Below are positions 1 to 55,714 of a stretch of 55,714 nt of DNA, piece after piece (within the stretch, counting starts at the first letter, position 1; every line of letters begins with the position of its first letter). A model generated the notes under the pieces. It did no database searches. It was given only the letters and a program-made list of their open reading frames with translations, and was not told the origin of the DNA. The stretch covers positions 1-55,714 of the IMG/VR virus record IMGVR_UViG_3300006169_000022. One strand, written 5' to 3'. The position numbers and the translations under genes are program-made. Source of the stretch: a virus.

Positions 1-87
1 CGCCCACCCCGTCACCCTGCCGGCCAACACCTCGGCCGAGGGCGTCGTCGAGTCCGTTCTGCGGGCCCGCAAGCACTACAAGGGCAC
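1..87. repeat. Terminal assembly overlap, left copy (identical to 55628-55714)
   Basis: The 87-nt string cgcccaccccgtcaccctgccggccaac...cactacaagggcac occurs at both window ends and lies inside one continuous reading frame. Confidence 0.9.
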
Positions 88-661
88 CGGTCGCCCGTCC
101 TTCTTCACCACGGACGACATCCTGACCGACATGATCCTGCTCAAGGACAAGATGGGTCGCCGTCTGTACAACACCGAGGCCGACCTGGCCGCGGCGCTGC
201 GCGTGGCGGAGATCGTCGTCGTCGAGGTTCTGGAGAACACCCCGGACCTGCTCGGCGTCATCGTCAACATGGCGGACTACACCATCGGTGCGGACCGCGG
301 TGGCCAGCTGGCCATGTTCGACGACTTCGACATCGACTACAACCAGCAGAAGTACCTGCTGGAGACCCGGATCTCCGGTGCGCTGACCAAGGCGAAGTCC
401 GCCGTGGTCATCAAGCGGACCTCGGGCACCACGGTGACCCCGGCCGTTCCGGCCTTCGATGAGGAGACCAACACCCTGACGGTTCCGACCGTGGCGGGCG
501 TTTCCTACTACAACGTGACCAACCCGCTGGCGGAGACTGAGCTCACCGACGGCGCGAACGTGGTCATCACGGAGACGACCGACGTGGAGGCGCGTCCTGA
601 CTCGGGTTACAACTTCCCGCACAACCAGGACGCTGACTGGACCTTCGCCTACACGGCCTGA
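2..661 (+). CDS. Major capsid protein, C-terminal part of the 670-aa prohead-protease/capsid fusion (5-prime part at 54276..55714); ends in an Ig-like extension
   Basis: Frame open from nt 2 with no start. It is continuous with 54276..55714 through the 87-nt overlap. TGA at 659-661. Confidence 0.8.
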   Translation, partial: AHPVTLPANTSAEGVVESVLRARKHYKGTGRPSFFTTDDILTDMILLKDKMGRRLYNTEADLAAALRVAEIVVVEVLENTPDLLGVIVNMADYTIGADRGGQLAMFDDFDIDYNQQKYLLETRISGALTKAKSAVVIKRTSGTTVTPAVPAFDEETNTLTVPTVAGVSYYNVTNPLAETELTDGANVVITETTDVEARPDSGYNFPHNQDADWTFAYTA

Positions 662-675
662 TCTAAGGCCCCCTG

Positions 676-1032
676 ATGGCGAGCGGAAGGTTCCACGGCG
701 CTGTCGGGTACAACCACGGATCAATCGAGCAGAAGCCGGGTGTTTTCGTAGAAAGCATCGTCGAAAGAAACTACTACGGCGATATTGTGCGAAACACCCG
801 GCAACTGCGCGAGTCAGGCGAAAGCATCAACAACGACCTGACCGTGGGGAACTCGATCAGCATCCTCGCAGATGCGTACGCCGGCGAGCATTTTCACGCC
901 ATCAGATTCGTCGAGTGGGCGGGGACCTTGTGGGACGTTGAAGACGTTTCTGTTCAGGGCCCCCGCCTCATTCTCCGGTTGGGAGGTGTCTACAATGGCC
1001 GACGAGCCAACAATGACGAAGGGGCGAGCTAA
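676..1032 (+). CDS. Small virion protein, head-tail adaptor/closure type (putative), 118 aa
   Basis: ORF directly after the capsid gene; the size and position are typical of head-tail connector genes. Function is from weak motif memory only. Confidence 0.5.
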   Translation: MASGRFHGAVGYNHGSIEQKPGVFVESIVERNYYGDIVRNTRQLRESGESINNDLTVGNSISILADAYAGEHFHAIRFVEWAGTLWDVEDVSVQGPRLILRLGGVYNGRRANNDEGAS

Positions 1033-1312
1033 GAAGCACGCTTTCTTCAAGTCGTTGACTCCGAACGTCTACTTTCAGGCGCCTTCCAACACGGTGATGT
1101 CATATCCGTGCATTCGGTACGACATCGACGATGAGGCGAGAGAGTTCGCTGACAACACGCCTTACCGTCAGGAATGGCGGTATCAGGTGATAGTGATCGA
1201 CTCGGATCCAGATTCGCCGATTCGAGACGCTATCGCAGCTCTGCCAATGTGCCGCCTTTCGAGGAAGTACATAGCAGACGACCTCCACCACTTCGTGTTC
1301 AACCTCTTCTGA
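995..1312 (+). CDS. Small virion protein, head-tail joining/tail-completion type (putative), 105 aa
   Basis: ATG 995 lies 8 nt after GGGAGG (981-986); alternative ATG at 1013. The longer track ORF start (872) would overlap the upstream gene heavily. Confidence 0.5.
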   Translation: MADEPTMTKGRAKKHAFFKSLTPNVYFQAPSNTVMSYPCIRYDIDDEAREFADNTPYRQEWRYQVIVIDSDPDSPIRDAIAALPMCRLSRKYIADDLHHFVFNLF

Positions 1313-1325
1313 GAAAGGAAATCAC

Positions 1326-2030
1326 ATGCCGAAGCTTCTTTGGCACGCCCCCGGCAAGCGGACTTTCGAGACCGGTGTCGACCGTGGCGTCCTGTACATC
1401 CCGGATGCAACCGGGGTCTACGCGTCGGGTGTTCCGTGGAACGGTCTCACGACCGTCACGGAGAGCCCTTCGGGAGCCGAATCCAACAAGCAGTACGCCG
1501 ACAACCAGGTGTACCTCAACCTCGTCAGCGCGGAGGAGTTCAACGCCACGCTCGAGGCCCTGACCTACCCGGACGAGTTCGAGCAGTTCGACGGTTCGGC
1601 GGAGCTGGAGCCTGGCCTGCACATCGGCCAGCAGTCCCGCAAGCCGTTCGGTCTCTCGTACCGTTCGCTGCTCGGCAACGAGCTCGAGGGTCAGGACTAC
1701 GCCTACAAGCTCCACCTCGTGTACGGTGCCCTGGCGGCCCCGTCCGAGCGGGCTCGCACCACGGTGAACGAGAACCCCGAGGCCATGGGTCTCAGCTGGG
1801 AGCTCTCGACCACCCCCGTGGGTGTCGGCGTCATCGCCGGCAAGGAGTACAAGCCGACCGCGCATCTGACGGTCAACTCCGCCACCGCCGACGCAGGCGC
1901 TCTGGCCGAGCTCGAGGGCATCCTGTACGGAACGAACGCCGACGCCGGGGCCACCCCGCCCGTCGAGGACGCTCCGGCCCGGCTGCCGCTTCCGTCGGAG
2001 GTCTACGAGATCTTCTCGGCGGTCGTCTGA
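1326..2030 (+). CDS. Major tail (tube) protein, paralog 1, 234 aa
   Basis: AAAGGAA RBS. Position after the head-tail genes. Clearly homologous to 2618..3289 and 3983..4702 (W-x-PG-x-R-x-FE-x-GV...VLY...WNGL...YPDEF...KPFGLSYR...YKLHLVY). Confidence 0.6.
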   Translation: MPKLLWHAPGKRTFETGVDRGVLYIPDATGVYASGVPWNGLTTVTESPSGAESNKQYADNQVYLNLVSAEEFNATLEALTYPDEFEQFDGSAELEPGLHIGQQSRKPFGLSYRSLLGNELEGQDYAYKLHLVYGALAAPSERARTTVNENPEAMGLSWELSTTPVGVGVIAGKEYKPTAHLTVNSATADAGALAELEGILYGTNADAGATPPVEDAPARLPLPSEVYEIFSAVV

Positions 2031-2055
2031 TCTACATCTGAAAGGGGGCCAGAGA

Positions 2056-2601
2056 GTGCTCATCATCACTGTACAGGGAGAGGAATACTGGGACGTCGAG
2101 TCCGAGAAGTTCGTCCATCCCGAAGCTTTCGAGCTGCAGCTCGAGCACTCTCTGGTCTCCCTTTCAAAATGGGAGTCAGAATTCAAGAAACCGTTCCTCG
2201 GACCGGCAGACAAGACCTCGGAAGAGGCTCTTGCCTACATCCACGCCATGATTCTCACCCCCGATATTTCCAAGGAGGTCCTGAATCTCCTGTCGGAAGA
2301 GAATGTCGACGAGATTCGAGAGTACATGGCTACCGATCAAACCGCCACGTGGTTCTCTGAGGAGCGACCCGAGGCGAAGTCAGGAGAGCTCATCACCAAT
2401 GAGCTGATCTACTTCTGGCTGGCGCACTTCAACATCCCGTTCCACCCCGCCGAAACCTGGCATCTCAGCCGACTCTTCACGCTTATTCGAGTGGCCAACG
2501 CCAAGAACTCGAAGCCCAAGAAGATGAGCCAGGCGGAGATCTACGAGCGCAACAAGCGTCTCAACGCCCAGCGCCGAAAGGAACTCGGCCACAACGGATA
2601 G
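2056..2601 (+). CDS. Tail assembly chaperone-like protein (putative), 181 aa, GTG start
   Basis: ORF just downstream of the tube gene; acidic N-terminal half, basic C-terminus. Function is inferred from position and weak resemblance only. Confidence 0.4.
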   Translation: MLIITVQGEEYWDVESEKFVHPEAFELQLEHSLVSLSKWESEFKKPFLGPADKTSEEALAYIHAMILTPDISKEVLNLLSEENVDEIREYMATDQTATWFSEERPEAKSGELITNELIYFWLAHFNIPFHPAETWHLSRLFTLIRVANAKNSKPKKMSQAEIYERNKRLNAQRRKELGHNG

Positions 2602-2617
2602 AAAGGAGGACGTTTCA

Positions 2618-3289
2618 GTGAGCAGACTTGAGTGGAATCTCCCGGGACAGCGACTCTTCGAGACCGGTGTCAGCCACGGCGTCCTCTTCCCTCGCACGGG
2701 ACCCGGCGTCGCATGGAACGGCCTCATCTCCGTGAACGAAGCCGTATCTGGAGGAGACGTCGAGTCCCTCTACTTCGACGGTGTCAAGTACCTCGACATT
2801 GTCGCCAACGAAGACTTTCAGGCAACCATCGAGGCATATTCTGCCCCGAAGGAGTTCGCCGCAAGCGATGGCAGTAAGGCCCTTTCTCCGGGTCTGTATG
2901 CCACACAGCAGCCCCGCAAGCCATTCAGCTTCTCCTATCGGACTCTGATCGGGAACGATCTCAAGGATGTTGACTTCGGTTACAAGCTGCACATCGTCTA
3001 CAACTGCATGGCCTCGCCGGCAGCCCGGACGAACCAGAGCCTTGGCGGAGGAACTCCGTCTCCCGGGACTAGATCCTGGACGGTCAATGCTGTTCCACCG
3101 GAGGCCACCACATTCAAGCCAACCGCGCACTTTGTCATTGACTCGACGATCGTCAACCCCTACATGTTGGCAGATCTTGAGTCATATTTGTACGGAAGAG
3201 AGGGGTTTGAGCCCGCTCTTCCCACGCAGGATGAAGTGATCGCGTTCCTGGCAAACGTCATCGAAGAGCCTCTGGGCGACTTCATCTAG
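2618..3289 (+). CDS. Tail-tube-like protein, paralog 2, 223 aa
   Basis: GTG 2618 lies 8 nt after GAAAGGAGG. Alignable over its full length with 1326..2030. Confidence 0.6.
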   Translation: MSRLEWNLPGQRLFETGVSHGVLFPRTGPGVAWNGLISVNEAVSGGDVESLYFDGVKYLDIVANEDFQATIEAYSAPKEFAASDGSKALSPGLYATQQPRKPFSFSYRTLIGNDLKDVDFGYKLHIVYNCMASPAARTNQSLGGGTPSPGTRSWTVNAVPPEATTFKPTAHFVIDSTIVNPYMLADLESYLYGREGFEPALPTQDEVIAFLANVIEEPLGDFI

Positions 3290-3302
3290 AAGGAGATATT
3301 TC

Positions 3303-3983
3303 ATGACTTTGGTTCCTGTCTCCTCTGGAGACCCGCACGTCGCAGCCCACAACGAGGAGCGCGACGCCATCAACGAGCTCCAGACAGACGTTGCCGGAAA
3401 GATCGATCTCCCGACGGTCCCGCAGGTTGGCGATATTCTTCGCTACAACGGGACCAAGTGGGTCTCATCCGCCAGCCGCCTCTTCGAGGGAACCGGTCAG
3501 CCGGAAGGCACCGTCGCTGCTCCTGTCGGATCAACCTACGTTCAGCTGGATGGCGCTACGGGTGCTGTTCGCTGGCTCAAGGTCGCCGGCGTGGACGAGA
3601 ACGACAACACCGGCTGGATGCTGGAGCACGCCGACACTAAGTGGCGGAACGTCCTCGCGCAGGTCAACCTGAACGCGGGAGCACAGAAGTTCACTGCGCA
3701 TCTGCGACGTCTCAACAACCTGGTGGAGGTATATTTCGACCTCGAAACCCCGACGGCATCTGGTTCCTGGGACTTCTACACGCTTCCCGTCGGCTTCCGC
3801 CCGCACATGAGTCGGTACGGTCTCTTGACCGACAACAAGGAGAATGCGTCGACTTCGACGTATATTTCCTCGGCTGGTCTCTGTCGGCTGACTGTGATCA
3901 AGGGAAGCTGGCGAGACCGGTGGAATGGGATCTGGCACACGGATGACCCGTGGCCGGCATCTCTTCCGGGAACGGCTGTCTGA
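3303..3983 (+). CDS. Minor tail / receptor-binding-type protein, 226 aa
   Basis: N-terminal GDPHVAAHNEERDAINELQ motif typical of actinophage minor tail proteins. The C-terminal LPVGFRP block is shared with 4716..7247. Confidence 0.6.
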   Translation: MTLVPVSSGDPHVAAHNEERDAINELQTDVAGKIDLPTVPQVGDILRYNGTKWVSSASRLFEGTGQPEGTVAAPVGSTYVQLDGATGAVRWLKVAGVDENDNTGWMLEHADTKWRNVLAQVNLNAGAQKFTAHLRRLNNLVEVYFDLETPTASGSWDFYTLPVGFRPHMSRYGLLTDNKENASTSTYISSAGLCRLTVIKGSWRDRWNGIWHTDDPWPASLPGTAV

Positions 3984-4702
3984 TGACTAGGCTGGACTGG
4001 GCTGGCGCCCCCCGCGGTTATGAGATCGGTGTGAGCAATGCCGTTCTATATTCCGATGGCGTGGGCGCCGCCTGGAACGGCCTGTTGGAGGTTTCGGAGG
4101 GGGCCTCTGGCACACAGACTCTGGATCACTTCTACGACGGCCGCCGACTCACCATTCTGCAAGAGATCGGCGACTTCGAAGCAGCTCTTCAGGTGTTCAC
4201 ATATCCTGACGAGCTCGAGGACCCAGGGATCCAGAGATTCGGACTCTCCTACAGGACCCAGCACAACGCCGGAGACAAGATCCACATCGTCTACAACGCG
4301 CTCGTGAAGAAGCCAGATCGTCAACTATCCACGGTCGCAGCAAATGTTAGCCCCTCTATATTTTCGTGGAATCTTCAAGCCTCCGCGATCAACATTCCAG
4401 GGGCAAGACCGTCCTCGCACCTGATCGTCGACACGGCTGACTCGAGCCCAGAGCTCGTCGCCATTGTCGAGGGATGGCTGTACGGCACAGTCTCCACAGA
4501 GCCGCGCCTTCCCGATCCTGAGGAGTTCGTCGATATTTTCGAGGCGGCAACAACTCTTCGGATTCGAAACAACGGCGACGGAACTTGGACGGCAACAGGT
4601 CCAGATGACGTTGTTGTTGATAACGGTGACGGAAGCTTCACCATCCACGCCCCGACTCTCCATTTTCTGGATGAGGGCCTGTTCGTAGTCGACTCGTTCT
4701 GA
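3983..4702 (+). CDS. Tail-tube-like protein, paralog 3 with extra C-terminal domain, 239 aa
   Basis: ATG overlaps the upstream TGA (TGATG). Homologous to 1326..2030 and 2618..3289. Confidence 0.6.
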   Translation: MTRLDWAGAPRGYEIGVSNAVLYSDGVGAAWNGLLEVSEGASGTQTLDHFYDGRRLTILQEIGDFEAALQVFTYPDELEDPGIQRFGLSYRTQHNAGDKIHIVYNALVKKPDRQLSTVAANVSPSIFSWNLQASAINIPGARPSSHLIVDTADSSPELVAIVEGWLYGTVSTEPRLPDPEEFVDIFEAATTLRIRNNGDGTWTATGPDDVVVDNGDGSFTIHAPTLHFLDEGLFVVDSF

Positions 4703-4715
4703 GAAAGGAGAACCC

Positions 4716-7247
4716 ATGGCCACCGCAACCAGCTTGACGCAGGAGACGATCATCGAGCTGATGGCTGGGTGGGAAAGCGTCGCAGTAAGCCAAGAAGGCA
4801 TCAACGCTGAGATCAGCGATATTCGTCTCAACTTGGCGACCAATGACGCTCGGGTGACTGAGTTCAACGACATCATCCTCCCTCAGCTTCGCGAAGATCT
4901 GGCCGCGGGCTCTCTCCGAATCGACGAGCTCAATGACACGGTCATCCCGGATCACCAGCTGCTTTTGGATGCTCACACACAGGACCTGACGAACCTCAAC
5001 ACGGTGAGCATCCCTGGGCTTCAGTCTCAGATCGACTCGAACTGGGGTTGGATCGATGAGCTCAACACAACCACGCTTCCGGATCTTCAGACTCGACTTT
5101 CGACGCTTGAGGCAAGTGGTGGTGGCTTCGACCCCACGGCCCTTCAGGCTGAGATCGATGCTCTCGAGGCTCGGTTCCCCATCACGGGGCCCGATATTTC
5201 GGCAGATGCGGTCACGGCGAACCACATCGCCTCGGAGACGATCACGGCGGCTGAGATCGCCGCGGGAACCATCACGGCCCTGCAGATCGCGGCTGACACC
5301 ATCACTGCGAACGAGATCGCTGCCGGTACGATTACGGCTGACGAGATCGCTGCAGCGACGATCACCTCTGCCGAGATATTTGCGGGCGGCATCACTTCCG
5401 ACAGCCTGGCTGTTGGCGCCGTTACGGCTACGGCTCTGGCTGCTGGGTCGGTTACCGCAGAGAGCCTCTCGACCGAGGCTGTGACCTCGACTCACCTTTC
5501 GGGTAAGTTCATCGAAGGTGTCACGCTCGACATCGAGGATTCCATATTTGCAGAACCAGGGTTCCTCGACATCAAGGCCAACTTGATGGAGGCCGAGTCG
5601 GCGATCTTCCACAACAACGTCACTCGACGAGGTACGAACAACTACATCGAGGGTCGCGAGACGGCTTCCTCTGGTGTGACGGACCCGGGAACTCCGCCGA
5701 CGGTTGTCAACCACTGGCCTGAGGTCCAACTGAGTTCGCCATATTGGGGTAGCGAGTACCCTGTGAGCGGTTCGGTCGGAATGACCTACGGCAACAACGG
5801 TGAGTACGTTTCGGTGACTGGCGGTGGATCTCTCATCGCATTCAACCCCACCACGGGTGTTGGTCGTCTGATTTATGACGCGGGGTATTTGAGTTCGGCA
5901 TATGGTATTACCCGAATCGGGGATTGGTACTATGTGCTGGTTTCTTCCTTCATGGGCGACAAGTACACGGTCGTTCGATACAGCGCTCTCACGGCCAACG
6001 AGGGGACTCTCGACGGAACTTACTCGATGAACGTGGTGAACTTGTACAACACCACCGCAAATCCGCAGTCCATTGCTCTAGGTCGAGAAGCAGCCGACGA
6101 CAGTAACCCGAATGGTGTTCTATGGGTTGTTCGGATCGACTCGACCACGGGTAACTACCACTATCGGACGATCGACCCGGTAACGAAGACGAGCATCAAG
6201 CCTTGGACGGAGATCACGAGTGGCCCGAATCCTGGCTTCTCTCGAAACATCGCGGGAGTCGAGATCGGTGGTCTCTTGGAGACGACCCTGACCATCTGGC
6301 CGGACAACGGAAACTCGATTGTGTACCACGACACGTTCATGGGGTCTAGTGAGCTTCTTCACGACAGCTCCATGAGTGGTCGCGTCCGACCTTACGGGAA
6401 GACGATCTCGGCCGCAGTCGGGAACTACTCTCTGGACACAGACGGGAAGCTCTACACCCATGGCTGGGAGTGGGATGATGAGGGGGCGGGCGAGTTCAAG
6501 TACACCTGGTACGACTCGGACACGGGTGGTGCTGGTGTGGCGGAGTCTCTTCCGAGCCCGCCGAGAACATTCACGCCCAGCAAGGGGGCTATGGTCCTCT
6601 TCAAGACACCTCTTCCGCCAGATGATGGATCTGTCGACGCGCCAAACACGGTGCGGGCCTACTACAAGAACAAGCAGAGCACTCGTTCGGTGTTCCCTTA
6701 TGTCGCCGAGTTTCAGGCAGACGAATTGGCCGCCGGTCGAGTCATGCAGGTGCCGCCAACGGGTGCGGCTGCTCCGGTCACATCGGGGTTTGCGAGCCGA
6801 ATCACCCTTCTTCCAGGTGGCTACAAGTCCAACAACGGAGACGTAACGGGCCCCTTCTGGTGGCTCTATGGCGATGGAGACTGGCGTCTGGGAGACATGA
6901 AGCGGTCTGGAGCTCTTGGGCGTTTCACATTCCCGTCAGCCACAGCAGCCCCTTCGGGAGTCTACACAGGGCTGGTTACGTTCGTCCGAACGGGCCAGCT
7001 CGTGACTGCCACTGGGTACATCGACCGAGCAAGCGGATCGAACTCGTCTATGCATGATTCCGGGCTGCGAATCCCGGTCGGGTTCCGCCCAGCATCGAAC
7101 GTCACCGCGTCGGCTCGTACAGCCTGGAACTCAACAGCAACTTACCGGTACAGGTTCAACGCTGACGGGATTGTCGAGGTCCAGCAAAGTGCCGCAATCA
7201 CCGTCTTCCAAGCGTTTAGCGAGTCCTGGGTCACGGCAGACGCCTAA
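4716..7247 (+). CDS. Minor tail / tail fibre protein, 843 aa
   Basis: AAAGGAG RBS. Coiled-coil N-terminus, ITAxEIAAGT-type octad repeats, a large Gly/Tyr/Trp-rich domain, and a C-terminal RIPVGFRP block like 3303..3983. Confidence 0.7.
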   Translation: MATATSLTQETIIELMAGWESVAVSQEGINAEISDIRLNLATNDARVTEFNDIILPQLREDLAAGSLRIDELNDTVIPDHQLLLDAHTQDLTNLNTVSIPGLQSQIDSNWGWIDELNTTTLPDLQTRLSTLEASGGGFDPTALQAEIDALEARFPITGPDISADAVTANHIASETITAAEIAAGTITALQIAADTITANEIAAGTITADEIAAATITSAEIFAGGITSDSLAVGAVTATALAAGSVTAESLSTEAVTSTHLSGKFIEGVTLDIEDSIFAEPGFLDIKANLMEAESAIFHNNVTRRGTNNYIEGRETASSGVTDPGTPPTVVNHWPEVQLSSPYWGSEYPVSGSVGMTYGNNGEYVSVTGGGSLIAFNPTTGVGRLIYDAGYLSSAYGITRIGDWYYVLVSSFMGDKYTVVRYSALTANEGTLDGTYSMNVVNLYNTTANPQSIALGREAADDSNPNGVLWVVRIDSTTGNYHYRTIDPVTKTSIKPWTEITSGPNPGFSRNIAGVEIGGLLETTLTIWPDNGNSIVYHDTFMGSSELLHDSSMSGRVRPYGKTISAAVGNYSLDTDGKLYTHGWEWDDEGAGEFKYTWYDSDTGGAGVAESLPSPPRTFTPSKGAMVLFKTPLPPDDGSVDAPNTVRAYYKNKQSTRSVFPYVAEFQADELAAGRVMQVPPTGAAAPVTSGFASRITLLPGGYKSNNGDVTGPFWWLYGDGDWRLGDMKRSGALGRFTFPSATAAPSGVYTGLVTFVRTGQLVTATGYIDRASGSNSSMHDSGLRIPVGFRPASNVTASARTAWNSTATYRYRFNADGIVEVQQSAAITVFQAFSESWVTADA
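5208..5497 (+). repeat. Tandem ~24-nt (8-aa) repeats inside the fibre gene
   Basis: AVTANHIA SETITAAE IAAGTITA LQIAADTI TANEIAAG TITADEIA AATITSAE IFAGGITS DSLAVGAV TATALAAG SVTAESLS TEAVTSTH. Confidence 0.8.
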
Positions 7248-7259
7248 GAAAGGAGCGAC

Positions 7260-7472
7260 ATGCCCAACCTTCCAACCATCAGCATCAACGATCAGGCCAA
7301 GTTCGATCGCGTTGTGGCAGCTTTCGGCACCGCCGAGAACTACCGAACCTGGTTGCGCAACCAGATCATCGCGGAGGTTGGGCGTGTCGAGTCCAAGATC
7401 ATTCTGGACCAGCGAGACGCCGAAGCCGAAGCCAAGATTCGAGAGGTCTCAGCGGCCCTCAACACAATGTGA
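7260..7472 (+). CDS. Hypothetical protein, 70 aa
   Basis: AAAGGAG RBS 5 nt upstream; compact spacing. Confidence 0.55.
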   Translation: MPNLPTISINDQAKFDRVVAAFGTAENYRTWLRNQIIAEVGRVESKIILDQRDAEAEAKIREVSAALNTM

Positions 7473-7486
7473 AAGAAAGGTTCAAA

Positions 7487-7726
7487 ATGGGAGCAGTTTC
7501 GCAAGAAAAGTTCAAGGTCGACCATCTCCGCAAGAGAATCGCCCAAGTCACGGTCGAGTACGAAGACCGTCTGGCCGACGAAGCAGTCAAAGTCCAGGTC
7601 CTTCTCCAGCAGAGGGATGAGGCGCGTGAGCACGCTCGCGTCCTTGCGGATCGCGTCGCCGAACTCGAGGCTCAGTATGAGCCAACAGAGGAGTCTGACT
7701 CCCAGGATGAACCCAACCCCGAGTAG
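7487..7726 (+). CDS. Hypothetical coiled-coil protein with acidic tail, 79 aa
   Basis: ATG 7487 lies 6 nt after AAAGG. The GTG 7469 start in the track overlaps the upstream stop and lacks an RBS. Confidence 0.55.
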   Translation: MGAVSQEKFKVDHLRKRIAQVTVEYEDRLADEAVKVQVLLQQRDEAREHARVLADRVAELEAQYEPTEESDSQDEPNPE

Positions 7727-7744
7727 CCTCTGAAAGGAGGAGCC

Positions 7745-45276: not shown

Positions 45277-45288
45277 AAGGAGTGAGTC

Positions 45289-46042: not shown

Positions 46043-46053
46043 AAGGAGGAACC

Positions 46054-47390: not shown

Positions 47391-47435
47391 ACGGCTTCAG
47401 TTCAAAATGGAACCAATTCGAAGGAGGTGACCACC

Positions 47436-47855: not shown

Positions 47856-47863
47856 GAGGCTCA

Positions 47864-48136: not shown

Positions 48137-48139
48137 TTC

Positions 48140-48706
48140 ATGTCTCTTCAGACTCGCCTCAGTGATCTGATCACCGCGATCGGCACTGACTACAAGCAGC
48201 TCAGGACCTGGATCTCCGGGTCCTCGTCAGGAGACCTCACCGGTCTCACCACCACCGCCAAGACCAGCCTGGTTGCGGCCATCAACGAAGTGCAGTCCGA
48301 GGTCGGCGCCGGCGGAACTCAGCCGGATGCCTCCGTCACCACCAAGGGCATCGTCGAGCTGGCGACTCTCACCGAGGTTGCTACCGGCACCGACACTGTT
48401 CGTGCCGTGACCCCGGAGGGCGTTCGTCAGGAGCGGGTTGCGCTCAAGGCTGAGATCCTTGGCGCCGGCGTCCCGGCAGCTCTCGACACCCTCGACGAGC
48501 TCGCAGCGGCTCTCGGTGATGACGCGAACTTCGCTTCGACGGTCACCACCGGTCTGGCCAACCGTGTTCGCACGGACACCGCGGCACAGGGTCTCACGAC
48601 CACTCAGCAGTCGAATGCTCGCACCAACATCGCGGCCGTGGGGTCTGCGGAGATCGGGAACCCGGAGACGGACCTGGTCGCCCTCTACACCACGGCTAAG
48701 GCGTGA
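48140..48706 (+). CDS. Tail fibre protein, 188 aa
   Basis: TTKGIVELATLTEVATGTDTVRAVTPEGV and PAALDTLDELAAALGDDANFA are standard phage fibre motifs. Confidence 0.65.
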   Translation: MSLQTRLSDLITAIGTDYKQLRTWISGSSSGDLTGLTTTAKTSLVAAINEVQSEVGAGGTQPDASVTTKGIVELATLTEVATGTDTVRAVTPEGVRQERVALKAEILGAGVPAALDTLDELAAALGDDANFASTVTTGLANRVRTDTAAQGLTTTQQSNARTNIAAVGSAEIGNPETDLVALYTTAKA

Positions 48707-48852
48707 GCCTTCAGACCCGACTCACTGACCTGATCAACGCCATTGGCGCTGACATGAAGACCAAGGTCGCGGGGTCGGGCACCACCAAGATCACGGTCTC
48801 CACCACACAGCCCGCAACTGGGCCGGATGGCGAGATCTGGATTCAGAAGTAG
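48703..48852 (+). CDS. Small fibre-related protein, 49 aa, GTG start
   Basis: Not in the track. GTGA overlap. The N-terminus SLQTRLTDLINAIGADMK repeats the N-terminus of 48140..48706. Confidence 0.45.
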   Translation: MSLQTRLTDLINAIGADMKTKVAGSGTTKITVSTTQPATGPDGEIWIQK

Positions 48853-48858
48853 GCGACG

Positions 48859-49485
48859 ATGGCAGCCACCGCTGTCCTGAGAGCGTCAACTTCCATATCC
48901 ATTGGTAGTGGGTTCTCGGGCCCCACCAATGCGTACGGCGATCCGAACTCCACATATTCTCTGTGGACATCCGCAGTTGGTGGTGCTACGGCTGCCGCTG
49001 GGTGGGATGGCTTCGGGGCACAGGCAGCGATTGGGTCGCAACCTCAGAGTATCGATTCGATCGATATTACTGTAGTTGCGCATGTCAACAACGCTACCCG
49101 AATCAGCAGCTTGACAGTTCAACTTCTCGATGGGACTACGCGGATCGGTTCACCGATCGCTCTGACCAGGTCCACTACGGTCGGATTTTCTCAGACAGTC
49201 ACCTTCACAGGCCCATTCACGTGGGCTCAGTTGGCAAATCTGGGCGTGGCTATCGATGCAGGAAAGAACTCCCAGAACCAATCCACTACTCTGAGTGTGG
49301 ATGCGTTCGGAATGGTGGTCAACTACACCCCCGTCCCGCCGCCTGGCGTGTTCGTCAAAGTCAGGAACGGCGCCAATGGCGCATTTTCTGACAAGCAAGT
49401 GTTCGTCCGTAATGGGGTCAATGGCCCCTTCGTTGCTGCGACCTCGATCAAGAAGCGTAGCGGCATCAACGGGTCATTCGTCTAA
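48859..49485 (+). CDS. Hypothetical virion-type protein, 208 aa
   Basis: Beta-rich Ser/Thr/Gly composition. C-terminal V(K/F)VRNG(A/V)NG(A/P)F repeats. Confidence 0.55.
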   Translation: MAATAVLRASTSISIGSGFSGPTNAYGDPNSTYSLWTSAVGGATAAAGWDGFGAQAAIGSQPQSIDSIDITVVAHVNNATRISSLTVQLLDGTTRIGSPIALTRSTTVGFSQTVTFTGPFTWAQLANLGVAIDAGKNSQNQSTTLSVDAFGMVVNYTPVPPPGVFVKVRNGANGAFSDKQVFVRNGVNGPFVAATSIKKRSGINGSFV

Positions 49486-49506
49486 CCAGAAAGGAGGAAC
49501 CGCTCT

Positions 49507-49977
49507 ATGGGAACTGAAACTGAGAACCAGCCATGGCAGGAGCAGGTTGACACCGCTCTCGCCCACTACGGGGTGAAGGGCATGCGCTGGGGCTTTCGGA
49601 AGTCTGAGCATGAGGGAGGAACCACCGCCAAGCGGGCCAAGGTTCCCGACTCGATCTCCCCGGACAAGCAGGCGGCGAATGCCGCGGCAGCTCGGATCAC
49701 TCAAAAGGGTGACACTTCGGCCCTGTCCAACAAGGAGCTCCAGCAGGTCGTCCAGCGGATGAACTTGGAGCAGCAGTACTCCCGACTGGCCGACAGCCCC
49801 GGGAAACTCAAGTCCGGCAGCAAGAAGGCCAAGGAGATCGTCGACGCCGTCAACACCGGCAAGACGGTCTACAGCATGACGCCCACCCCTGTCAAGACCA
49901 AGATCGGGAAGGCCCTTCGCGGGGCCCTCATCTCGACGGCGGTTCTGGCGGGCAAGGCGTACTACCGCAACAAGTAA
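49507..49977 (+). CDS. HYGVKGMRWG-motif protein 1 (paralog of 51762..52295), 156 aa
   Basis: GAAAGGAGG RBS. N-terminal ALAHYGVKGMRWG, a Lys-rich middle and a hydrophobic C-terminal helix. It sits where a small terminase would be expected, but I recognise no DNA-binding motif. Confidence 0.6.
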   Translation: MGTETENQPWQEQVDTALAHYGVKGMRWGFRKSEHEGGTTAKRAKVPDSISPDKQAANAAAARITQKGDTSALSNKELQQVVQRMNLEQQYSRLADSPGKLKSGSKKAKEIVDAVNTGKTVYSMTPTPVKTKIGKALRGALISTAVLAGKAYYRNK

Positions 49978-49995
49978 CAGAGAGGAGGGTTGGCG

Positions 49996-51765
49996 ATGGC
50001 TACCATCGTTGTCGACGGACACACTCTGTCCAACGACACGGTTCCGATCTACTACGGTCAGTTCCGTGATGCAGTAGTCCGTGGCGACATTCCGGTGAAC
50101 CGGGAGATCGCGGCGGAGATGAACCGCATCGACGCACTCATCGCCAACCCGAACATCTGGTACGACGCGGGCGCAATCGAGGGCTTCATCCGGTTCTGCG
50201 AGAAAGAGTGCACGCTCACCGACGGCAGTGATCTCCACATGCTGCCGATCTTCAAGGTGTGGGCTGAGCAGATCTTCAGCTGGTTCTACTTCGTCGAGAG
50301 ACAGGTCTACGAGCCAGGAGAGGACAACCATGGGGGCCGCTACGTCAACAAGACGGTCAAGAAGCGGCTGACCAACAAGCAATACCTGATCGTGGCCCGA
50401 GGTGCCGCCAAGTCGATGTATGTCTCTCTCATCCAGAACTACTTCCTCAACATCGACACCTCGACCACTCACCAGATCACGACTGCCCCTACCATGAAGC
50501 AGGCAGACGAGGTCATGTCCCCAATCCGGACCGCCATCACGCGGGCCAGGGGACCACTCTTCAAGTTCCTTACCGAGGGTTCGCTCCAGAACACCACTGG
50601 ATCTCGAGCCCTCCGGCAGAAGCTGGTGGCCACCAAGAAGGGCATCGAGAACTTCCTCACTGGATCGTTGCTCGAAGTCCGACCGATGACCATCAACAAG
50701 CTTCAGTCGCTGCGCACCAAGATCAACTCCGTCGATGAGTGGCTGTCGGGTGACATCCGAGAGGACGTCATCGGTGCTATCGAGCAGGGAGCGTCGAAGG
50801 TTGACGACTACCTGATCATCGCTGTCAGCTCCGAGGGAACGGTCCGAGCCGGTGCCGGCGACACAATCAAAATGGAACTGCATTCGATCCTCAAGGGCGA
50901 GTACAACGCGCCGCACATCTCGATCTGGCACTACAAGCTGGACGACTTGGAGGAGGTTGCGGATCCTGCCATGTGGCTGAAGGCGAACCCGAACTTGGGT
51001 AAGACTGTCAGTTACGAGACCTACCACTTGGACGTGGAACGAGCCGAGAAAGCACCTGCTTCCCGGAACGACATCCTCGCCAAGAGGTTTGGCATCCCCA
51101 TGGAGGGCTACACCTACTTCTTCACCTACGAAGAGACTGTGCCTCACCGTCCTCAGAAGTACTGGCAGATGCCCTGCTCCATGGGCGTGGACTTGTCGAT
51201 GGGTGACGACTTCTGTGCGTTCACTTTCCTCTTCCCTCTTGGGCGGGGGCGCTTCGGAATCAAGACCCGGAGCTATATTTCTTCGCTGACGCTGATGAAG
51301 CTCCCCGGGGCTATGCGTCAGAAGTACGACGAGTTCATCGCCGAAGGCAGCCTTCACGTTCTCGAGGGAACCATCCTCGACATGATGGAGGTGTACGACG
51401 ACCTCGATGCCTATATTCAGCAAGAAGAGTACGAGGTCAGTGCTGTGGGCTACGACCCCTACAACGCCAAGGAGTTCATCGAGAGATGGACAACTGAGAA
51501 CGGTGAATGGGGTGTCATGAAGGTCATCCAGGGGGCGAGGACTGAGTCTGTTCCTCTCGGCGAGCTGAAGAAGCTTTCCGAAGAGCGCATGCTCATATTC
51601 GACCAGATCCTGATGTCCTTCACCATGGGCCATGCCATCACGATCGAAGACACAAACGGCAACCGCAAGCTCTACAAGAAGCGCCAGGAAGAGAAGATCG
51701 ACAACGTCGCTGCTCTCATGGATGCTTTCGTCGCGTACAAGGCCAACAAGGAGGCTTTCGAATGA
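49996..51765 (+). CDS. Terminase large subunit, 589 aa
   Basis: ATG lies 6 nt after GAGGAGGG. YLIVARGAAKS (Walker A-like) and SVDEWLSG (Walker B-like). Nuclease half with GVDLSMGDDFCAF and DNVAALMDAF, Terminase_1-like organisation. Confidence 0.8.
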   Translation: MATIVVDGHTLSNDTVPIYYGQFRDAVVRGDIPVNREIAAEMNRIDALIANPNIWYDAGAIEGFIRFCEKECTLTDGSDLHMLPIFKVWAEQIFSWFYFVERQVYEPGEDNHGGRYVNKTVKKRLTNKQYLIVARGAAKSMYVSLIQNYFLNIDTSTTHQITTAPTMKQADEVMSPIRTAITRARGPLFKFLTEGSLQNTTGSRALRQKLVATKKGIENFLTGSLLEVRPMTINKLQSLRTKINSVDEWLSGDIREDVIGAIEQGASKVDDYLIIAVSSEGTVRAGAGDTIKMELHSILKGEYNAPHISIWHYKLDDLEEVADPAMWLKANPNLGKTVSYETYHLDVERAEKAPASRNDILAKRFGIPMEGYTYFFTYEETVPHRPQKYWQMPCSMGVDLSMGDDFCAFTFLFPLGRGRFGIKTRSYISSLTLMKLPGAMRQKYDEFIAEGSLHVLEGTILDMMEVYDDLDAYIQQEEYEVSAVGYDPYNAKEFIERWTTENGEWGVMKVIQGARTESVPLGELKKLSEERMLIFDQILMSFTMGHAITIEDTNGNRKLYKKRQEEKIDNVAALMDAFVAYKANKEAFE

Positions 51766-52295
51766 CACAGGAAAACTTCTCGACTCCCCAAGAGGCTCTG
51801 GCGCACTACGGCGTCAAGGGCATGCGCTGGGGTGTGACGACCAAGTCTGATTCCGGAGGGAAGTCCTCCAGCATCGGCAAGAACCCCGTTCGTGCGGCCT
51901 ACAAGTCGCAGAAGCAGGAGGGCAAGCGTCTCGACGAGAACGCAGCCAACAAGTCCGTTGGCCAGGCTCGCAAGGAGGTCCGTGAGGTCGGCAAGACCGC
52001 TCGGAGCATCATCAGTGAGTCGAAGCGTGCGCAGACCGAGGCCGGCCGTCAGGCTGCCGCCAAGCGCTACCAGAAGGAGGTCCTGAACACGATCAAGTCA
52101 GACGAGTTCAAGTCCACCTACCGCAAGGCCAGCACCATGGGCAAGGGCGAGATGGCAGCTCACGCCGTTGCTTTCGGGCCTCTCGCTCTGGTCACCATCC
52201 CCGCCGTCCGGTCCGGCTACAAGAAGATGTCCGAAGCCGGCTACGAGCTCGAGGTCGACATGGCCCACGACATTCTGCGTGAGATGCGCTCCTAG
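51762..52295 (+). CDS. HYGVKGMRWG-motif protein 2, 177 aa
   Basis: ATGA overlap with the terminase gene. N-terminal ALAHYGVKGMRWG, a Lys-rich middle and a hydrophobic C-terminal helix. Confidence 0.6.
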   Translation: MTQENFSTPQEALAHYGVKGMRWGVTTKSDSGGKSSSIGKNPVRAAYKSQKQEGKRLDENAANKSVGQARKEVREVGKTARSIISESKRAQTEAGRQAAAKRYQKEVLNTIKSDEFKSTYRKASTMGKGEMAAHAVAFGPLALVTIPAVRSGYKKMSEAGYELEVDMAHDILREMRS

Positions 52296-52328
52296 TCATC
52301 TCCTACGATCCAAGAAAGGAGGTGACCT

Positions 52329-53663
52329 ATGAGCGTCTTTGGACAGCTGAAGCACGCATGGAACGCATTTTTGGACCAGAACGAGACCTACCGAACTCGC
52401 CCCTATGACATGGGGACGAGCTACGGAACTCGACCTGATCGCGTTCGACTGCATGTCTCGAACGAGCGGTCGATCATCTCAGCCATCTACCTTCGGCTGG
52501 CCTTGGATCTGGCTTCGATCGATATTCGTCACGTTCGTCTCGACGAAGAGGGGCGCTTCACGGAAGACATCAACAGCGGCCTGCAGAACTGTCTGCAGGT
52601 CGAGGGTAACGTCGACCAGGCGGCTCAAGCATTTTTCATCGATGCCTATCTCACGATGTTCGACGAGGGCTGTATTGCCATCGTGCCTGTGGACACCGAC
52701 CTGGACCCGGAGGGCAACGGCAGCATCAACGTTCTGACGTGGCGCGTCGGAAGAATCGTTCAGTGGTTCCCGCGGCATGTCCGTCTCGATATTTACAACG
52801 ATCAGACGGGCCGTCGTGAGCAGGTGACCATGGCGAAGTCTGCCGTGGCCATCGTGGAGAACCCTCTCTACACCGTGATGAACGAGCCGAACTCGACTCT
52901 TCAGCGGCTTATTCGGAAGCTCGGGCTTCTGGACATGGTCGACGAGCAGTCGGGCTCGGGCAAGCTGGACATGATCGTTCAGCTTCCGTACGTCATCAAG
53001 TCGGAGAGCCGGCGAAAGCAGGCTGAGCAGCGCAGGCAGGACCTCGAGATCCAGCTGAGTGGTAGCAAGTACGGAATCGCCTACACGGATGGCTCCGAGA
53101 AGATCACTCAGCTCAACCGACCTGTCGAGAACAACCTCCTGAAGCAGATCGAGGTTCTCACCGACCTGCTCTACAGCCAGATGGGGCTCACCCCAGAGGT
53201 CATGCTCGGTACGGCGGAGGAAGCCGCCATGCTGAACTACATGAACAGGACCATCAATCCTCTTGTCACCGCCATGGTGCAGGAGCTCAAGCGGAAGTTC
53301 CTCAGCAAGACCGCACGGACTCAGCGCCAGTCGGTCGAGTACTTCCAGGACCTGTTCAAGCTGGTTCCGATGTCGGTTCTCGCCGAGATCGCCGACAAGT
53401 TCATCCGGAACGAGATCGCTACCTCGAACGAGTTCCGAGGATTCATCGGACTGAAGCCAGTCAAGGACAAGAAGGCCGACGAGCTGCGCAATCCCAACAT
53501 GCCAGCTCCACTCGACCAACCTGCCGCATCGGCAGCCACTGCTCCGGCTTCCGAGGGGCAGGAAGGAACGGACGACTTCGATCCGTTTGAAGGAATCAAT
53601 GCTGCGTTGGACGACGCATTCAAGAGTCTGGAGGGCCTGACCAATGGCGCAGGGCCAAGCTGA
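52329..53663 (+). CDS. Portal protein, 444 aa
   Basis: AAAGGAGGTGA RBS. Position after the large terminase; size; acidic C-terminal tail. Confidence 0.65.
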   Translation: MSVFGQLKHAWNAFLDQNETYRTRPYDMGTSYGTRPDRVRLHVSNERSIISAIYLRLALDLASIDIRHVRLDEEGRFTEDINSGLQNCLQVEGNVDQAAQAFFIDAYLTMFDEGCIAIVPVDTDLDPEGNGSINVLTWRVGRIVQWFPRHVRLDIYNDQTGRREQVTMAKSAVAIVENPLYTVMNEPNSTLQRLIRKLGLLDMVDEQSGSGKLDMIVQLPYVIKSESRRKQAEQRRQDLEIQLSGSKYGIAYTDGSEKITQLNRPVENNLLKQIEVLTDLLYSQMGLTPEVMLGTAEEAAMLNYMNRTINPLVTAMVQELKRKFLSKTARTQRQSVEYFQDLFKLVPMSVLAEIADKFIRNEIATSNEFRGFIGLKPVKDKKADELRNPNMPAPLDQPAASAATAPASEGQEGTDDFDPFEGINAALDDAFKSLEGLTNGAGPS

Positions 53664-54249
53664 CATGGACTCCCTGATCGAGTCCGGGATGGAAGCTGCG
53701 GAGGAGATTCTCCACCGAGCTGCCTACGATCCGGTCAAGGCCAGGGAGTACTACCTCAGAACCAGACAACTCAAAGGTCGTCGTCCAGCCGCTCAAGTCC
53801 AACCCTCTGGTCGTCGACCCGGGGGCGGCACGTCCAATGCCGGAATGCGTCCATCCAGGCGCAAGCAGCTGGAAGCTGAGAAGGCAAAACTCGAAAAGCG
53901 AATCGAAGAGCTGAAGCACGCCCTTGAGCTCCTTGTCGAAGCCGCTAAGAAGCGGGCCGGGGTCAAACCCGAGAAGGATGACAAGGATCCCAAGGAGACG
54001 GCTGACCGAAACTCGAAAGAGAAGAAAGGAAAGCCTCTCACCGAGAAGCAGAAGCGTGAGAAGCGTGAAGCAGCTCGGGAGCAGTACGAGAAAGAGAAGG
54101 GGATGACCCTTTCCGTGGAAGTCAGTCAACTGCGAGAGCAGGCGCAAGACATCCGCGCTCAACTGCAGGCTGCCATCGCCGATGCTCGGCAGAGGAAGCC
54201 TCATCCCAGTTCCAGTCAACCACACCAAACGGCATCGAACGGCCGTTGA
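53644..54249 (+). CDS. Scaffold-like coiled-coil, Lys/Glu-rich protein, 201 aa
   Basis: ATG lies 8 nt after GGAGGG. Located between the portal and capsid genes. Confidence 0.5.
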   Translation: MAQGQADMDSLIESGMEAAEEILHRAAYDPVKAREYYLRTRQLKGRRPAAQVQPSGRRPGGGTSNAGMRPSRRKQLEAEKAKLEKRIEELKHALELLVEAAKKRAGVKPEKDDKDPKETADRNSKEKKGKPLTEKQKREKREAAREQYEKEKGMTLSVEVSQLREQAQDIRAQLQAAIADARQRKPHPSSSQPHQTASNGR

Positions 54250-54275
54250 CACTCAACTGAAAGGAGACCGTCAAA

Positions 54276-55714
54276 ATGGAACCCGATTTCAGCGGGTACG
54301 CCACCAAGGCGGGTCTGAAGTGCTCAGACGGCCGAACGATTACTCGTGACGCCTTCGCGCACCAGGACAAGGTCAAGGTGCCGCTCGTGTGGCAGCACGC
54401 TCACAACGAGCCCACCAATGTGCTCGGCTACGCAATCCTGGAGCACCGTGACGAGACCCACCCCGACGGGGCTGGCGTCTACTGCAACGGCTACTTCAAC
54501 GAGAGCGAAGCCGGCAAGAGCGCGAAGATGCTGGTGACGCACGGTGACATCACCGCGCTGAGCATCTACGCCAACAACCTCGTGGAGAAGGCCAAGCAGG
54601 TCCTCCACGGGGCCATCCGAGAGGTTTCCCTGGTGCTTTCCGGTGCCAATCCTGGGGCCCTCATCGACAACGTTCGGATTGCCCACTCGGCAGACCCGAA
54701 TGACATCGAGACGCTGGAGGACGAGGCCGTGATCTACACGGGTCTCACCCTTCAGCACTCCGAAACCGCACCCGAGCCCGAGCCCGTCGTGGAGCCCGAG
54801 CCCGAGCCGGAGCCGGAGCCCGAGCCGGAGCCGGAGCCCGTCGTGGAGCACGCGGACCCCGACAACGAGACGGTGCAGGACGTCTACAACAGCCTGTCGC
54901 CGAAGCAGAAGGACGTTGTCCACTTCATGCTCGGAACTGCCATGGAGGGTACCGCCGACGGCGCTGCCCAGCACTCCGACACCATCACCGAGGACCACCT
55001 CACCCACCAGGAAGGAACTGACCACATGTCCCGCAACGTGTTCGACCAGAACGGCGTCAAGGCCGAAGGTCCCACGCTCAGCCACGCGCAGATCAAGTCG
55101 ATCTTCGACGACGCCCAGAAGAGGGGCTCCTTCAAGGAGGCCTTCCTCGCGCACGCCGAGGCCAACGACTACGGCATCACCGACATCGATCTGCTGTTCC
55201 CCGACGCCAAGAACGTCACCTCCACCCCGGAGTTCATCAGCCGGCGCATGGAGTGGGTTGCGAAGGTGCTCGACGGCGCCAAGCACTCCCCCTTCTCCCG
55301 GATCAAGTCGGTGCACGCCGACATCACCGCCGAGGAGGCCCGAGCCCGGGGTTACGTCAAGGGCAACCTCAAGAAGGACGAGGTCATCAAGCTGCTCAAG
55401 CGCGTGACCACGCCCACCACCGTCTACAAGAAGCAGAAGCTGGACCGCGATGACATCGTGGACATCACCGACTTCGACGTTGTCGTGTGGCTGAAGGGCG
55501 AGATGCGCCTCATGCTGGAGGAGGAGCTCGCGCGTGCGATCCTCATCGGCGATGGCCGCGAGCCTGACGACGAGGACAAGATCGACGAGGAGAAGATCCG
55601 CCCGATCGCGTGGGACAACGAGATGTACGCCCACCCCGTCACCCTGCCGGCCAACACCTCGGCCGAGGGCGTCGTCGAGTCCGTTCTGCGGGCCCGCAAG
55701 CACTACAAGGGCAC
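54276..55714 (+). CDS. Prohead protease (HK97 S78-type) fused through a (PE)n linker to the major capsid protein; 5-prime part, continues at nt 2..661
   Basis: ATG lies 9 nt after AAGGAG. Protease motifs VPLVWQHAH and REVSLVLSGANPGA. No stop before the window end. Not listed in the track because it is open-ended. Confidence 0.8.
   Translation, partial: MEPDFSGYATKAGLKCSDGRTITRDAFAHQDKVKVPLVWQHAHNEPTNVLGYAILEHRDETHPDGAGVYCNGYFNESEAGKSAKMLVTHGDITALSIYANNLVEKAKQVLHGAIREVSLVLSGANPGALIDNVRIAHSADPNDIETLEDEAVIYTGLTLQHSETAPEPEPVVEPEPEPEPEPEPEPEPVVEHADPDNETVQDVYNSLSPKQKDVVHFMLGTAMEGTADGAAQHSDTITEDHLTHQEGTDHMSRNVFDQNGVKAEGPTLSHAQIKSIFDDAQKRGSFKEAFLAHAEANDYGITDIDLLFPDAKNVTSTPEFISRRMEWVAKVLDGAKHSPFSRIKSVHADITAEEARARGYVKGNLKKDEVIKLLKRVTTPTTVYKKQKLDRDDIVDITDFDVVVWLKGEMRLMLEEELARAILIGDGREPDDEDKIDEEKIRPIAWDNEMYAHPVTLPANTSAEGVVESVLRARKHYKG
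54771..54848 (+). repeat. Pro-Glu dipeptide repeat linker (ccc/ccg-gag)n
   Basis: PEPEPVVEPEPEPEPEPEPEPEPVVE; gagcccgtcgtggagc occurs twice. Confidence 0.85.
55628..55714. repeat. Terminal assembly overlap, right copy (identical to 1-87)
   Basis: Exact 87-nt identity with the window start. Confidence 0.9.

Follow-up and report, generated by a model that had tools for sequence, protein, structure and literature searches.

Analysis of the window, by which we mean the whole 55,714-nt stretch of viral DNA studied here, revealed a dispersed five-letter word, ATATT, that lies almost exclusively on one strand. The forward word is selected for and its reverse form, AATAT, is selected against, irrespective of reading frame and gene boundaries. 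We propose that ATATT(C/T) is a selected one-way DNA site bound by a machine that the phage encodes and that covers about 50-75 bp; the likeliest candidate is the single-chain two-barrel RNA polymerase of the phage, perhaps together with the neighbouring SF2 helicase. Our preferred reading, that the sites are auxiliary one-way loading or start sites for this polymerase, has a probability of roughly one in three; that the polymerase reads the word in any mode (start, stop or pulling) falls a little short of even odds.

The phage and its genes

The window represents a complete siphophage genome, which belongs to the AM/AU/AW/BI/CC/DJ/EL group. The assembly is circular with an 87-bp terminal overlap, and the physical cos end is at about 44332/44333, in a region that matches the ends of cultured relatives and sits within the largest ATATT-free gap. 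The features used below are as follows.

782..52793, + strand: 88 dispersed ATATT sites, 76 of them followed by C or T (exact counts)
42391..42395, - strand: sole reverse copy (AATAT on the + strand), within the RNA polymerase gene
41284..44037, + strand: single-chain two-barrel RNA polymerase-like gene, 917 aa, catalytic GADFDGD at 527-533, HTH matches at both ends
25316..29101, + strand: helicase-primase-polymerase (four-in-one replicase), orthologue of phage 1706 GP55; rival candidate reader
38300..39682, + strand: SF2 helicase, core gene; possible cofactor or rival motor
44271..44360, + strand: cos region; a G/C hairpin (-29.8 kcal/mol for 44271-44332) is followed by CATCGCCGCTCT and the left-end sequence
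15996..18270, + strand: six copies (15996, 16425, 16744, 17067, 17383, 18241) of a 29-bp promoter-like motif, consensus TCGCAngAAtTACAcGcCcTATAATGAGA
19353..19382, + strand: promoter-like motif copy
21525..21554, + strand: promoter-like motif copy
33482..33954, + strand: two promoter-like motif copies, at 33482 and 33925, inside the 32772-35298 gap between ATATT sites
40357..40386, + strand: variant of the promoter-like motif, with the genes for VRR-Nuc, Cas4-like exonuclease and RNA polymerase downstream of it

The variant motif at 40357 contains an ATATT, at 40364. ESM Atlas searches with the core unknowns at 23906-24769 and 21898-22566 matched hypothetical proteins only, and no methyltransferase was identified among the core genes examined.

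Strand asymmetry of ATATT

Exact counts on the + strand gave 88 ATATT, 36 ATATTT, 40 ATATTC and 128 ATAT, while AATAT occurred once, at 42391, and GAATAT was absent. These numbers agree with the initial annotation, which had estimated about 85-90, 36 and 40 forward copies by eye and had reported one AATAT and no GAATAT. A pyrimidine follows ATAT in 120 of 128 cases (more than 90% had been claimed) and A precedes it in one case in 128 (claimed as almost never); the examples given for the three frames, at 2263, 3182 and 8075, were all correct. The chance level of about 18 copies was too high, the order-2 Markov expectation being 7.9. The extended consensus reads not-A, not-A, ATATT, C/T, not-A, and the base before the word is C in 37, G in 38, T in 13 and A in none of the copies.

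Genes were called with a simple purpose-written caller, and all well-supported ones lie on the + strand, so that the 88:1 ratio is oriented with the direction of phage transcription. Seventy-five of the 88 copies are inside genes, in all three frames (ATA-TT 20, xAT-ATT 31, xxA-TAT-T 24). Within-gene synonymous-codon shuffles (n = 60) gave an expectation of 10.9 +/- 3.0 and a maximum of 18 (z = 18), and for AATAT 8.9 against the single copy observed. The codon-aware count that had been proposed as a check thus confirmed the asymmetry, and the null fails to reproduce the ATATT excess.

Conservation among related phages

ATATT was enriched in 111 of 137 related loci, some of them redundant. Cultured, independently sequenced phages showed the same polarity (Tanis 129:1, Pepy6 176:6, DrGrey 102:1), while Circum (101:112) and the Lactococcus phages 1706 (184:237) and P092 (224:208) did not. 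The non-polar genomes represent only two events, the Lactococcus outgroup and the AM/AU/AW clade; no gene tracked polarity by presence or absence, and no replacement word was found in Circum, 1706 or P092. TGACC in 1706 (50 vs 19) was considered as a replacement and dropped, being unranked among frame-independent words. In the genes of nine genomes the reverse word numbered 12 against about 102 expected; since the genomes are related, pooled P values overstate independence. The hosts of the ATATT-bearing group comprise Streptomyces, Gordonia, Rhodococcus, Microbacterium and gut Bacillota.

Conservation at orthologous positions, compared in two pairs of genomes, was found as the initial annotation had proposed to look for it: where the amino acids were unchanged, 17 of 22 ATATT sites were kept, whereas the same rare codons, when outside the motif, were retained in 27% of cases. 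Sites also turn over, 18 of 48 being kept versus a relative with 88% replicase identity.

Orientation of the word follows the direction of the genome rather than the mRNA. The reverse-strand serine integrase of one relative (G007) carries 10 ATATT in genome direction against 3.2 expected (P = 0.0002), and its sense strand has no ATATT and 10 AATAT, so the copies are on the template strand; homologues of this integrase in other phages carry 0-2 copies and serve only as control. Five reverse-strand integrases pooled gave 33 forward words against 25.5 expected and 8 reverse words against 14.3, and the four tyrosine integrases, taken alone, gave no significant excess. Because gene orientation does not reverse the word, a transcript-level signal, which had been offered beside a DNA-level one, is unlikely. 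The DNA-level directional signal was borne out, as the codon-aware null fails and orthologous sites are conserved; taken as a whole, the initial annotation is partly supported.

Spacing and distribution

Gaps between sites in the window have a minimum of 73 bp and a median of 334 bp. The site-free gaps described earlier were recovered at 5741-7823, 49064-51275 and 52789-782 across the junction; the one placed at 42.4-45.85 kb is real but larger, 41814-48010. Gaps at 30025-32772 and 32772-35298 and a dense stretch at 37-42 kb had been missed. The largest gap is 6.2 kb in the window and 13.5 kb in HotFries. Spacing is even at 100-300 bp. Inter-site gaps below 50 bp numbered 8 against 67 expected, and by 75-100 bp the frequency had recovered fully; there is mutual exclusion over about 50-75 bp, and a second copy within about 50 bp brings no extra benefit.

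Use of available positions was flat along genes. Sites were neither enriched upstream of gene starts nor concentrated before start codons or near the 3' ends of long genes, no clear start-site purine was seen at a fixed distance from them, and neither hairpin nor U-run accompanied them, the folding energy being near that around unused positions. Enrichment was weakest in the left arm, which holds the late genes (O/E 1.9-3.5), and both physical genome ends are poor in sites. The profile differs by lineage, rising rightwards in Pepy6 and Tanis and falling in HotFries and in genomes G003 and G008. Because O/E is 5-8 in every codon-bias class of genes, the empty capsid gene largely reflects codon bias and position; a direct cost in all highly expressed genes was rejected on the same ground.

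Forward enrichment is lost just downstream of the strong promoter-like motifs, with a drop of about threefold. Within 300 bp downstream of the 29-bp motif O/E was 2.0 against 5.7 elsewhere (ratio 0.35), while 11 of 12 control words gave ratios of 0.81-1.17 and CTATT gave 0.51. The small genes that come first after a promoter held 16 ATATT against 36.9 expected, and none of 5000 permutations was as low. Upstream of the motif ATATT was not depleted (41/137 vs 691/2521).

The RNA polymerase as candidate reader

The polymerase is predicted to fold like QDE-1 (Foldseek E = 1.5e-9) and the non-virion polymerases P74-26 gp62 and P23-45 gp64 (E about 4e-8, TM-score about 0.3), and it keeps the DxDGD motif, GADFDGD being invariant in 49 homologues. 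Forward enrichment is absent within the polymerase gene across relatives, with 5 ATATT against 7.3 expected over ten genomes and ordinary codon bias; the genome decile before this gene has an O/E of 11.

On the preferred reading ATATT would be a minimal auxiliary loading or start site, by which the polymerase keeps entering from left to right in stretches beyond the reach of the long promoters. Reverse copies would be purged because transcription from them would run antisense or head-on, and forward copies would not be worth keeping just after the firing of a strong promoter or in the final gene ahead of the right-end hairpin. The minimal promoters of other phage two-barrel polymerases, 5'-TATG-3' for phiKZ late genes, a precedent for a four-base core, and AACA-N6-UA/G for AR9 late genes (PMC7598289), are likewise very short and orientation-specific with an A/T-rich core, as are the P23-45 gp64/gp96 promoters (PMC10770324). 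Those of phiKZ, AR9 and P23-45, however, mark mapped starts upstream of genes, while most ATATT copies are intragenic and unrelated to where genes begin. Of the features that define such promoters, an intact polymerase and orientation in the transcription direction were found; upstream placement and presence wherever the polymerase occurs were not.

Several observations speak against this reading. Circum, 1706 and P092 keep the polymerase and have neither the word nor a replacement, and none of 216 invariant polymerase columns is changed in the weakly polar AU/AW phages. The sites are not concentrated near gene starts or towards the 3' ends of long genes, where promoters would be of use, and enrichment is weakest where the late genes lie. 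Any protein bound to DNA might burden strongly transcribed genes, and the promoter shadow could also reflect a cost of this kind.

Alternative explanations

The best placed alternative, though unlikely, is that the four-in-one replicase prefers the word for priming on the lagging-strand template (the + strand, for a fork moving with the genes). It accounts for independence from frame and gene orientation and for the even spacing at 100-300 bp; the 1706 orthologue GP55 has a sequence-selective but loose primase (PMC12205980), and the pyrimidine conserved just behind the word could serve as template for an initial purine. The GP55 site is short and asymmetric as ATATT is, but its sequence differs, 5'-CCAAC-3' with a GTP start being preferred (PMC12205980), and 1706 has neither polar ATATT nor polar CCAAC. 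CCAAC showed no one-way enrichment over Markov expectation across the group (window 93 vs 98; 1706 43 vs 33). The primase domain of GP55 differs from that of polar phages at 3 of 44 invariant columns and that of Circum at none, yet both phages lack the word, and some relatives keep both polymerase and replicase without it. Gaps of 6.2 and 13.5 kb leave the strand incompletely covered, and neither reverse avoidance nor the promoter shadow is explained. A lead in the replicase helicase domain (Walker B QHDGD to DPDGD; G270A) was dropped, since QHDGD persists in 11 of the 16 loci without enrichment, the remaining five being unreadable.

Rather improbable is a polar stop, in which AATAT on the transcribed strand ends transcription by the phage polymerase and is purged in sense and spread in antisense to shorten stray antisense RNA. 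One rule would then yield both the enrichment and the genome-wide reverse avoidance; several loci (L319, L351, L428) avoid the reverse word without forward excess, and the only reverse copy of the window and several of those in relatives fall in the polymerase gene. Within 50 bp, nevertheless, a second copy is about as frequent as under neutrality, a pattern closer to occlusion than to terminators that act additively, the hairpin or U-run of an intrinsic terminator is absent from the sites, and a 2.7-kb gene free of forward copies is not readily explained.

We also regard as quite improbable that the sites are directional loading points for a genome-pulling or head-packaging motor (terminase, SF2 helicase or polymerase), as KOPS are for FtsK. 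The word is oriented with the genome, sites are scarce at both physical ends, and HotFries has 23 of its 25 sites to the left of its last promoter-like motif, as though the task passed to strong promoters. The differing profiles between lineages oppose this, packaging would not respond to promoters, and neither a sign of polymerase or helicase in the virion nor literature on virion proteomics of the group was found.

Programmed single-strand nicks, or one-strand base modification, by a phage enzyme (HNH, VRR-Nuc, Cas4-like or an unannotated core protein) are very unlikely. Such nicks have a precedent in T5, would explain reverse avoidance and might not be tolerated in strongly transcribed stretches; to our knowledge, however, nicked genomes carry far fewer than the 88-176 sites found here, no gene tracks polarity, and the core genes examined yielded no methyltransferase. 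Both the primase and nick readings fit the site distribution poorly.

There is little probability that a conserved host machine reads the word (sigma -10 recognition, NusG pausing, type III restriction evasion or Chi). Chi (RecBCD/AddAB) and KOPS (FtsK) are 5-8-mers of host chromosomes, read by host enzymes and differing between phyla. Frame-independent over-representation with strong polarity was found here as well, and like them ATATT is short, dispersed, strongly oriented and selected inside genes; unlike them it belongs to phages, consists of A and T only, obeys a spacing rule, shows a promoter shadow and is unchanged across hosts. This constancy across host phyla argues against a translocating host enzyme, for restriction and Chi sequences differ among those hosts. 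The A and T four bases apart recall a -10 box, as the initial annotation had pointed out, but T precedes only 13 of the 88 sites, TATAAT occurs once in the window, and other A/T-only A-n-n-n-T words show nothing comparable (ATAAT 3:3). T7 keeps 36 EcoP15 sites in one orientation along its whole genome (PMC3874151), as ATATT is kept; evasion of a host enzyme that needs inverted sites explains these and predicts one-orientation avoidance, with no enrichment, let alone five- to tenfold, or even spacing.

Mutational bias, a codon by-product or a sequencing artefact is extremely improbable: site turnover would suit it, but the base-calling signature once suggested is not supported because independently sequenced cultured phages carry the signal, a purely mutational origin is unlikely because the exclusion zone and a promoter shadow absent from control words exist, the codon null fails, the word falls in all three frames, and rare codons are kept inside sites. 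Neither an artefact nor codon usage nor a sigma-70 -10 box accounts for the signal.

Significance

This strong selective signature is family-wide, and we found no published explanation for it. Searches of the literature on ATATT with phage primase recognition and on polar pentamers in actinophages returned no description of the signal, nor was anything found on the promoter or biochemistry of this polymerase; Koert et al. (bioRxiv 10.1101/842583), Klyczek et al. (PMC5513430) and PMC13313380, in the portions of their text available, treat the phage group without the word. Phages that carry it (clusters DJ, BI, CC and EL) are cultured and easy to handle, and it offers a concrete sequence to try on two enzymes, an RNA polymerase for which no biochemical study was found and a replicase studied only in a member without the word. 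Synonymous recoding or segment inversion in these phages may not be neutral. It is possible, if doubtful, that a large phage family with hosts in Actinomycetota and Bacillota has a five-letter polarity code written along the entire genome, and that its polymerase reads this code as a hundred or more dispersed loading points within genes, whether to transcribe one way or to draw DNA into the cell by transcription, rather than a few promoters before genes. If the polymerase does read ATATT, this would be a new way of organising phage transcription or DNA entry.

Genome organization

The assembly is circular with an overlap of 87 bp and represents a siphophage in which every well-supported gene is on the + strand. 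Among the proteins it encodes are a terminase, a portal protein, a capsid-protease and a tape measure protein, along with a 1261-aa helicase-primase-polymerase (the replicase) and a 917-aa RNA polymerase-like protein. Because of the terminase-to-polymerase protein set, the phage groups with actinophage clusters AM, AU, AW, BI, CC, DJ and EL as well as with the Lactococcus 1706 / FP_oengus group (bioRxiv 10.1101/842583). Two DUF6353 paralogues (18493-19281 and 23013-23894) belong to a family present in 25 of 25 genomes compared. The cos end maps to about 44332, and the end sequences are kept from Lactococcus through Streptomyces phages; in several phages ATATT occupies left-end position 22, within the cos inverted repeat.

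44271-44360, cos junction, strong G/C hairpin directly ahead of the right end

A polar, conserved word

Exact counting in the window gave 88 copies of ATATT on the + strand and one of its reverse complement, at 42391, in agreement with the strong one-strand excess reported in the initial annotation. Genes, called with a simple script of our own, carried 75 copies vs 10.9 +/- 3.0 expected after shuffling synonymous codons gene by gene, and one reverse copy vs 8.9 under the same shuffles. All three reading frames were used, as claimed earlier; the excess withstood this codon-aware null and is not a by-product of coding. Flanking bases extend the consensus to not-A, not-A, ATATT, C/T, not-A. Neither a hairpin at the sites nor a preferred location along genes was found. 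The ATATT-free stretch 5741-7823, which spans the 3' portion of an 843-aa tail-fibre-like gene (4716-7247), is possibly a recently exchanged receptor-binding module.

A relative at 88% replicase identity shared 18 of 48 sites. Where amino acids were unchanged, 17 of 22 sites were retained vs 27% of the same rare codons outside sites, so that the orthologous positions are indeed conserved, a check the initial annotation had proposed. Whole-genome ATATT:AATAT counts were 176:6 in Pepy6, 129:1 in Tanis, 116:2 in Secretariat, 102:1 in DrGrey, 80:3 in Camille, 25:2 in HotFries, 297:93 in Paella and 197:48 in the temperate relative G007; Gordon, Uzumaki and Stayer showed weak polarity, and Circum, 1706 and P092 showed none. 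Among 137 loci around the replicase gene, some redundant and with GC from 28 to 61%, ATATT was enriched at z>=3 in 111 and the reverse word was under expectation in 117. In intergenic DNA, the forward:reverse ratio was 256:14. The signal is real, selected and family-wide.

The non-polar genomes represent two events on the tree, and presence/absence and residue comparisons revealed no gene or residue accounting for them. The replicase alignment showed that in the AM/AU/AW clade the helicase Walker B DPDGD replaces QHDGD (window residues 226-229), together with G270A; these changes were rejected as the cause of word loss, as the wider set showed no link. No convincing substitute word was found at any locus compared.

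Other words were also biased. Arthrobacter phage Stayer (L053-L055) is enriched in ATAT words on both strands (ATATT 66 vs 27, AATAT 48 vs 33) and nearly lacks CCWGG (CCTGG 0 vs 63), as do Uzumaki and genome G004, likely through restriction avoidance. Gordonia phage Tanis (L050-L052) carries GGATCC 61 times vs 18 expected, in all frames; HotFries and genome G008 have none. Lactococcus phage 1706 (L093-L095) has 50 TGACC vs 19 expected (reverse 23 vs 42), which falls outside the frame-independent words.

Orientation, position and spacing

The reverse-strand serine integrase of G007 carries 10 copies on the genome + strand vs 3.2 expected (P=0.0002) and no reversed copies. Four tyrosine integrases showed no significant excess singly and flipped in none of the four; pooled with G007, they gave 33 forward copies vs 25.5 expected and 8 reverse vs 14.3. 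Word orientation tracks the genome and not the mRNA, G007 supplying most of the weight. A "DNA- or transcript-level signal" had been suggested; the DNA-level part stands, and the transcript-level part is unlikely since reverse-strand integrases show no flip.

Observed/expected (O/E) values by genome tenth from the left end were 1.9, 3.5, 5.8, 6.9, 6.5, 19, 13, 11, 11 and 3.3. The polymerase gene held 5 copies vs 7.3 expected over ten genomes (pooled genomes are related to one another), with unexceptional codon bias. Avoidance of the reverse word extends throughout (12 vs about 102 expected).

15996-40386, + strand, 11 copies of the 29-bp motif TCGCAngAAtTACAcGcCcTATAATGAGA, preceding small genes and the polymerase operon

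The TATAAT core and position of this motif suggest a promoter, and it may need a phage factor because its TCGCA and TATAAT lie closer together than the two elements of a standard sigma-70 promoter do. It is common to actinophage relatives; the exact pattern CGCA-N15-17-TAATGA was not found in 1706, FP_oengus or Yotsuba. Within 300 bp downstream, ATATT O/E was 2.0, compared with 5.7 elsewhere, a depletion seen in 0 of 5000 permutations; 11 of 12 control words were unaltered, the reverse word was still avoided (3 vs 11.4) and no depletion was found upstream. HotFries has 23 of its 25 sites to the left of the final motif copy.

When sites were permuted over usable positions inside 3-kb blocks, gaps below 50 bp numbered 8 vs 67 predicted, with full recovery at 75-100 bp. 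As this ratio of 0.12 approximates the neutral level (about 1/5.7), a second copy inside the zone would bring no benefit; we infer that a large bound complex occludes neighbouring sites.

Candidate readers

The depletion after the promoter-like motif and the positional results link the word to transcription. The RNA polymerase-like protein (41284..44037, + strand) has an invariant GADFDGD loop and a fold resembling QDE-1 and the P23-45/P74-26 non-virion polymerases, and phage two-barrel polymerases are able to use four-base cores (PMC7598289). Taken together, these points favour, with a probability of roughly 0.33, ATATT as dispersed loading or start sites of this polymerase, auxiliary to other starts; selection would remove reverse copies because they would fire against genes. 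Against this, relatives retain the enzyme without the word, and the sites disregard gene starts and are scarcest in late genes. Relatives lacking the word can have the polymerase and the replicase alike, and ATATT is at no more than chance frequency over large regions.

A recognition site for the primase of the replicase (25316..29101, + strand) is the next candidate, although an unlikely one: the orthologue GP55 of phage 1706 prefers CCAAC as measured (PMC12205980), membership tests placed ATATT outside that site, the primase domain is nearly identical in phages without the word, and long ATATT-free gaps occur. A stop for antisense transcription is slightly less probable, and a site for an entry or packaging motor a little less again. 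Nicks or modification are improbable, and the primase, packaging and nick models predict no tie to transcription. A host reader is marginally less probable still, mutation or artefact is very improbable, and the remaining probability falls to another DNA-binding protein outside the named candidates. The word was initially noted to carry the core of a -10 element; a sigma-70 -10 reading fails on the base preceding the word and on related words, and ATATT did not test as a conventional promoter.

Chi and KOPS are polar, over-represented signals; ATATT behaves similarly but was not a member of that family on any test run. EcoP15 sites in T7 are all co-oriented (PMC3874151), which accounts for one-way presence but not for enrichment. 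No publication on polar ATATT was found in a search largely confined to freely accessible literature.

Curtobacterium phage Yotsuba (L071-L073) has the word loosened to ATAT(C/T), with CATAT 61 vs 13 and ATATCT 33 vs 6. Yotsuba is a natural specificity variant, helpful in the search for the reader.
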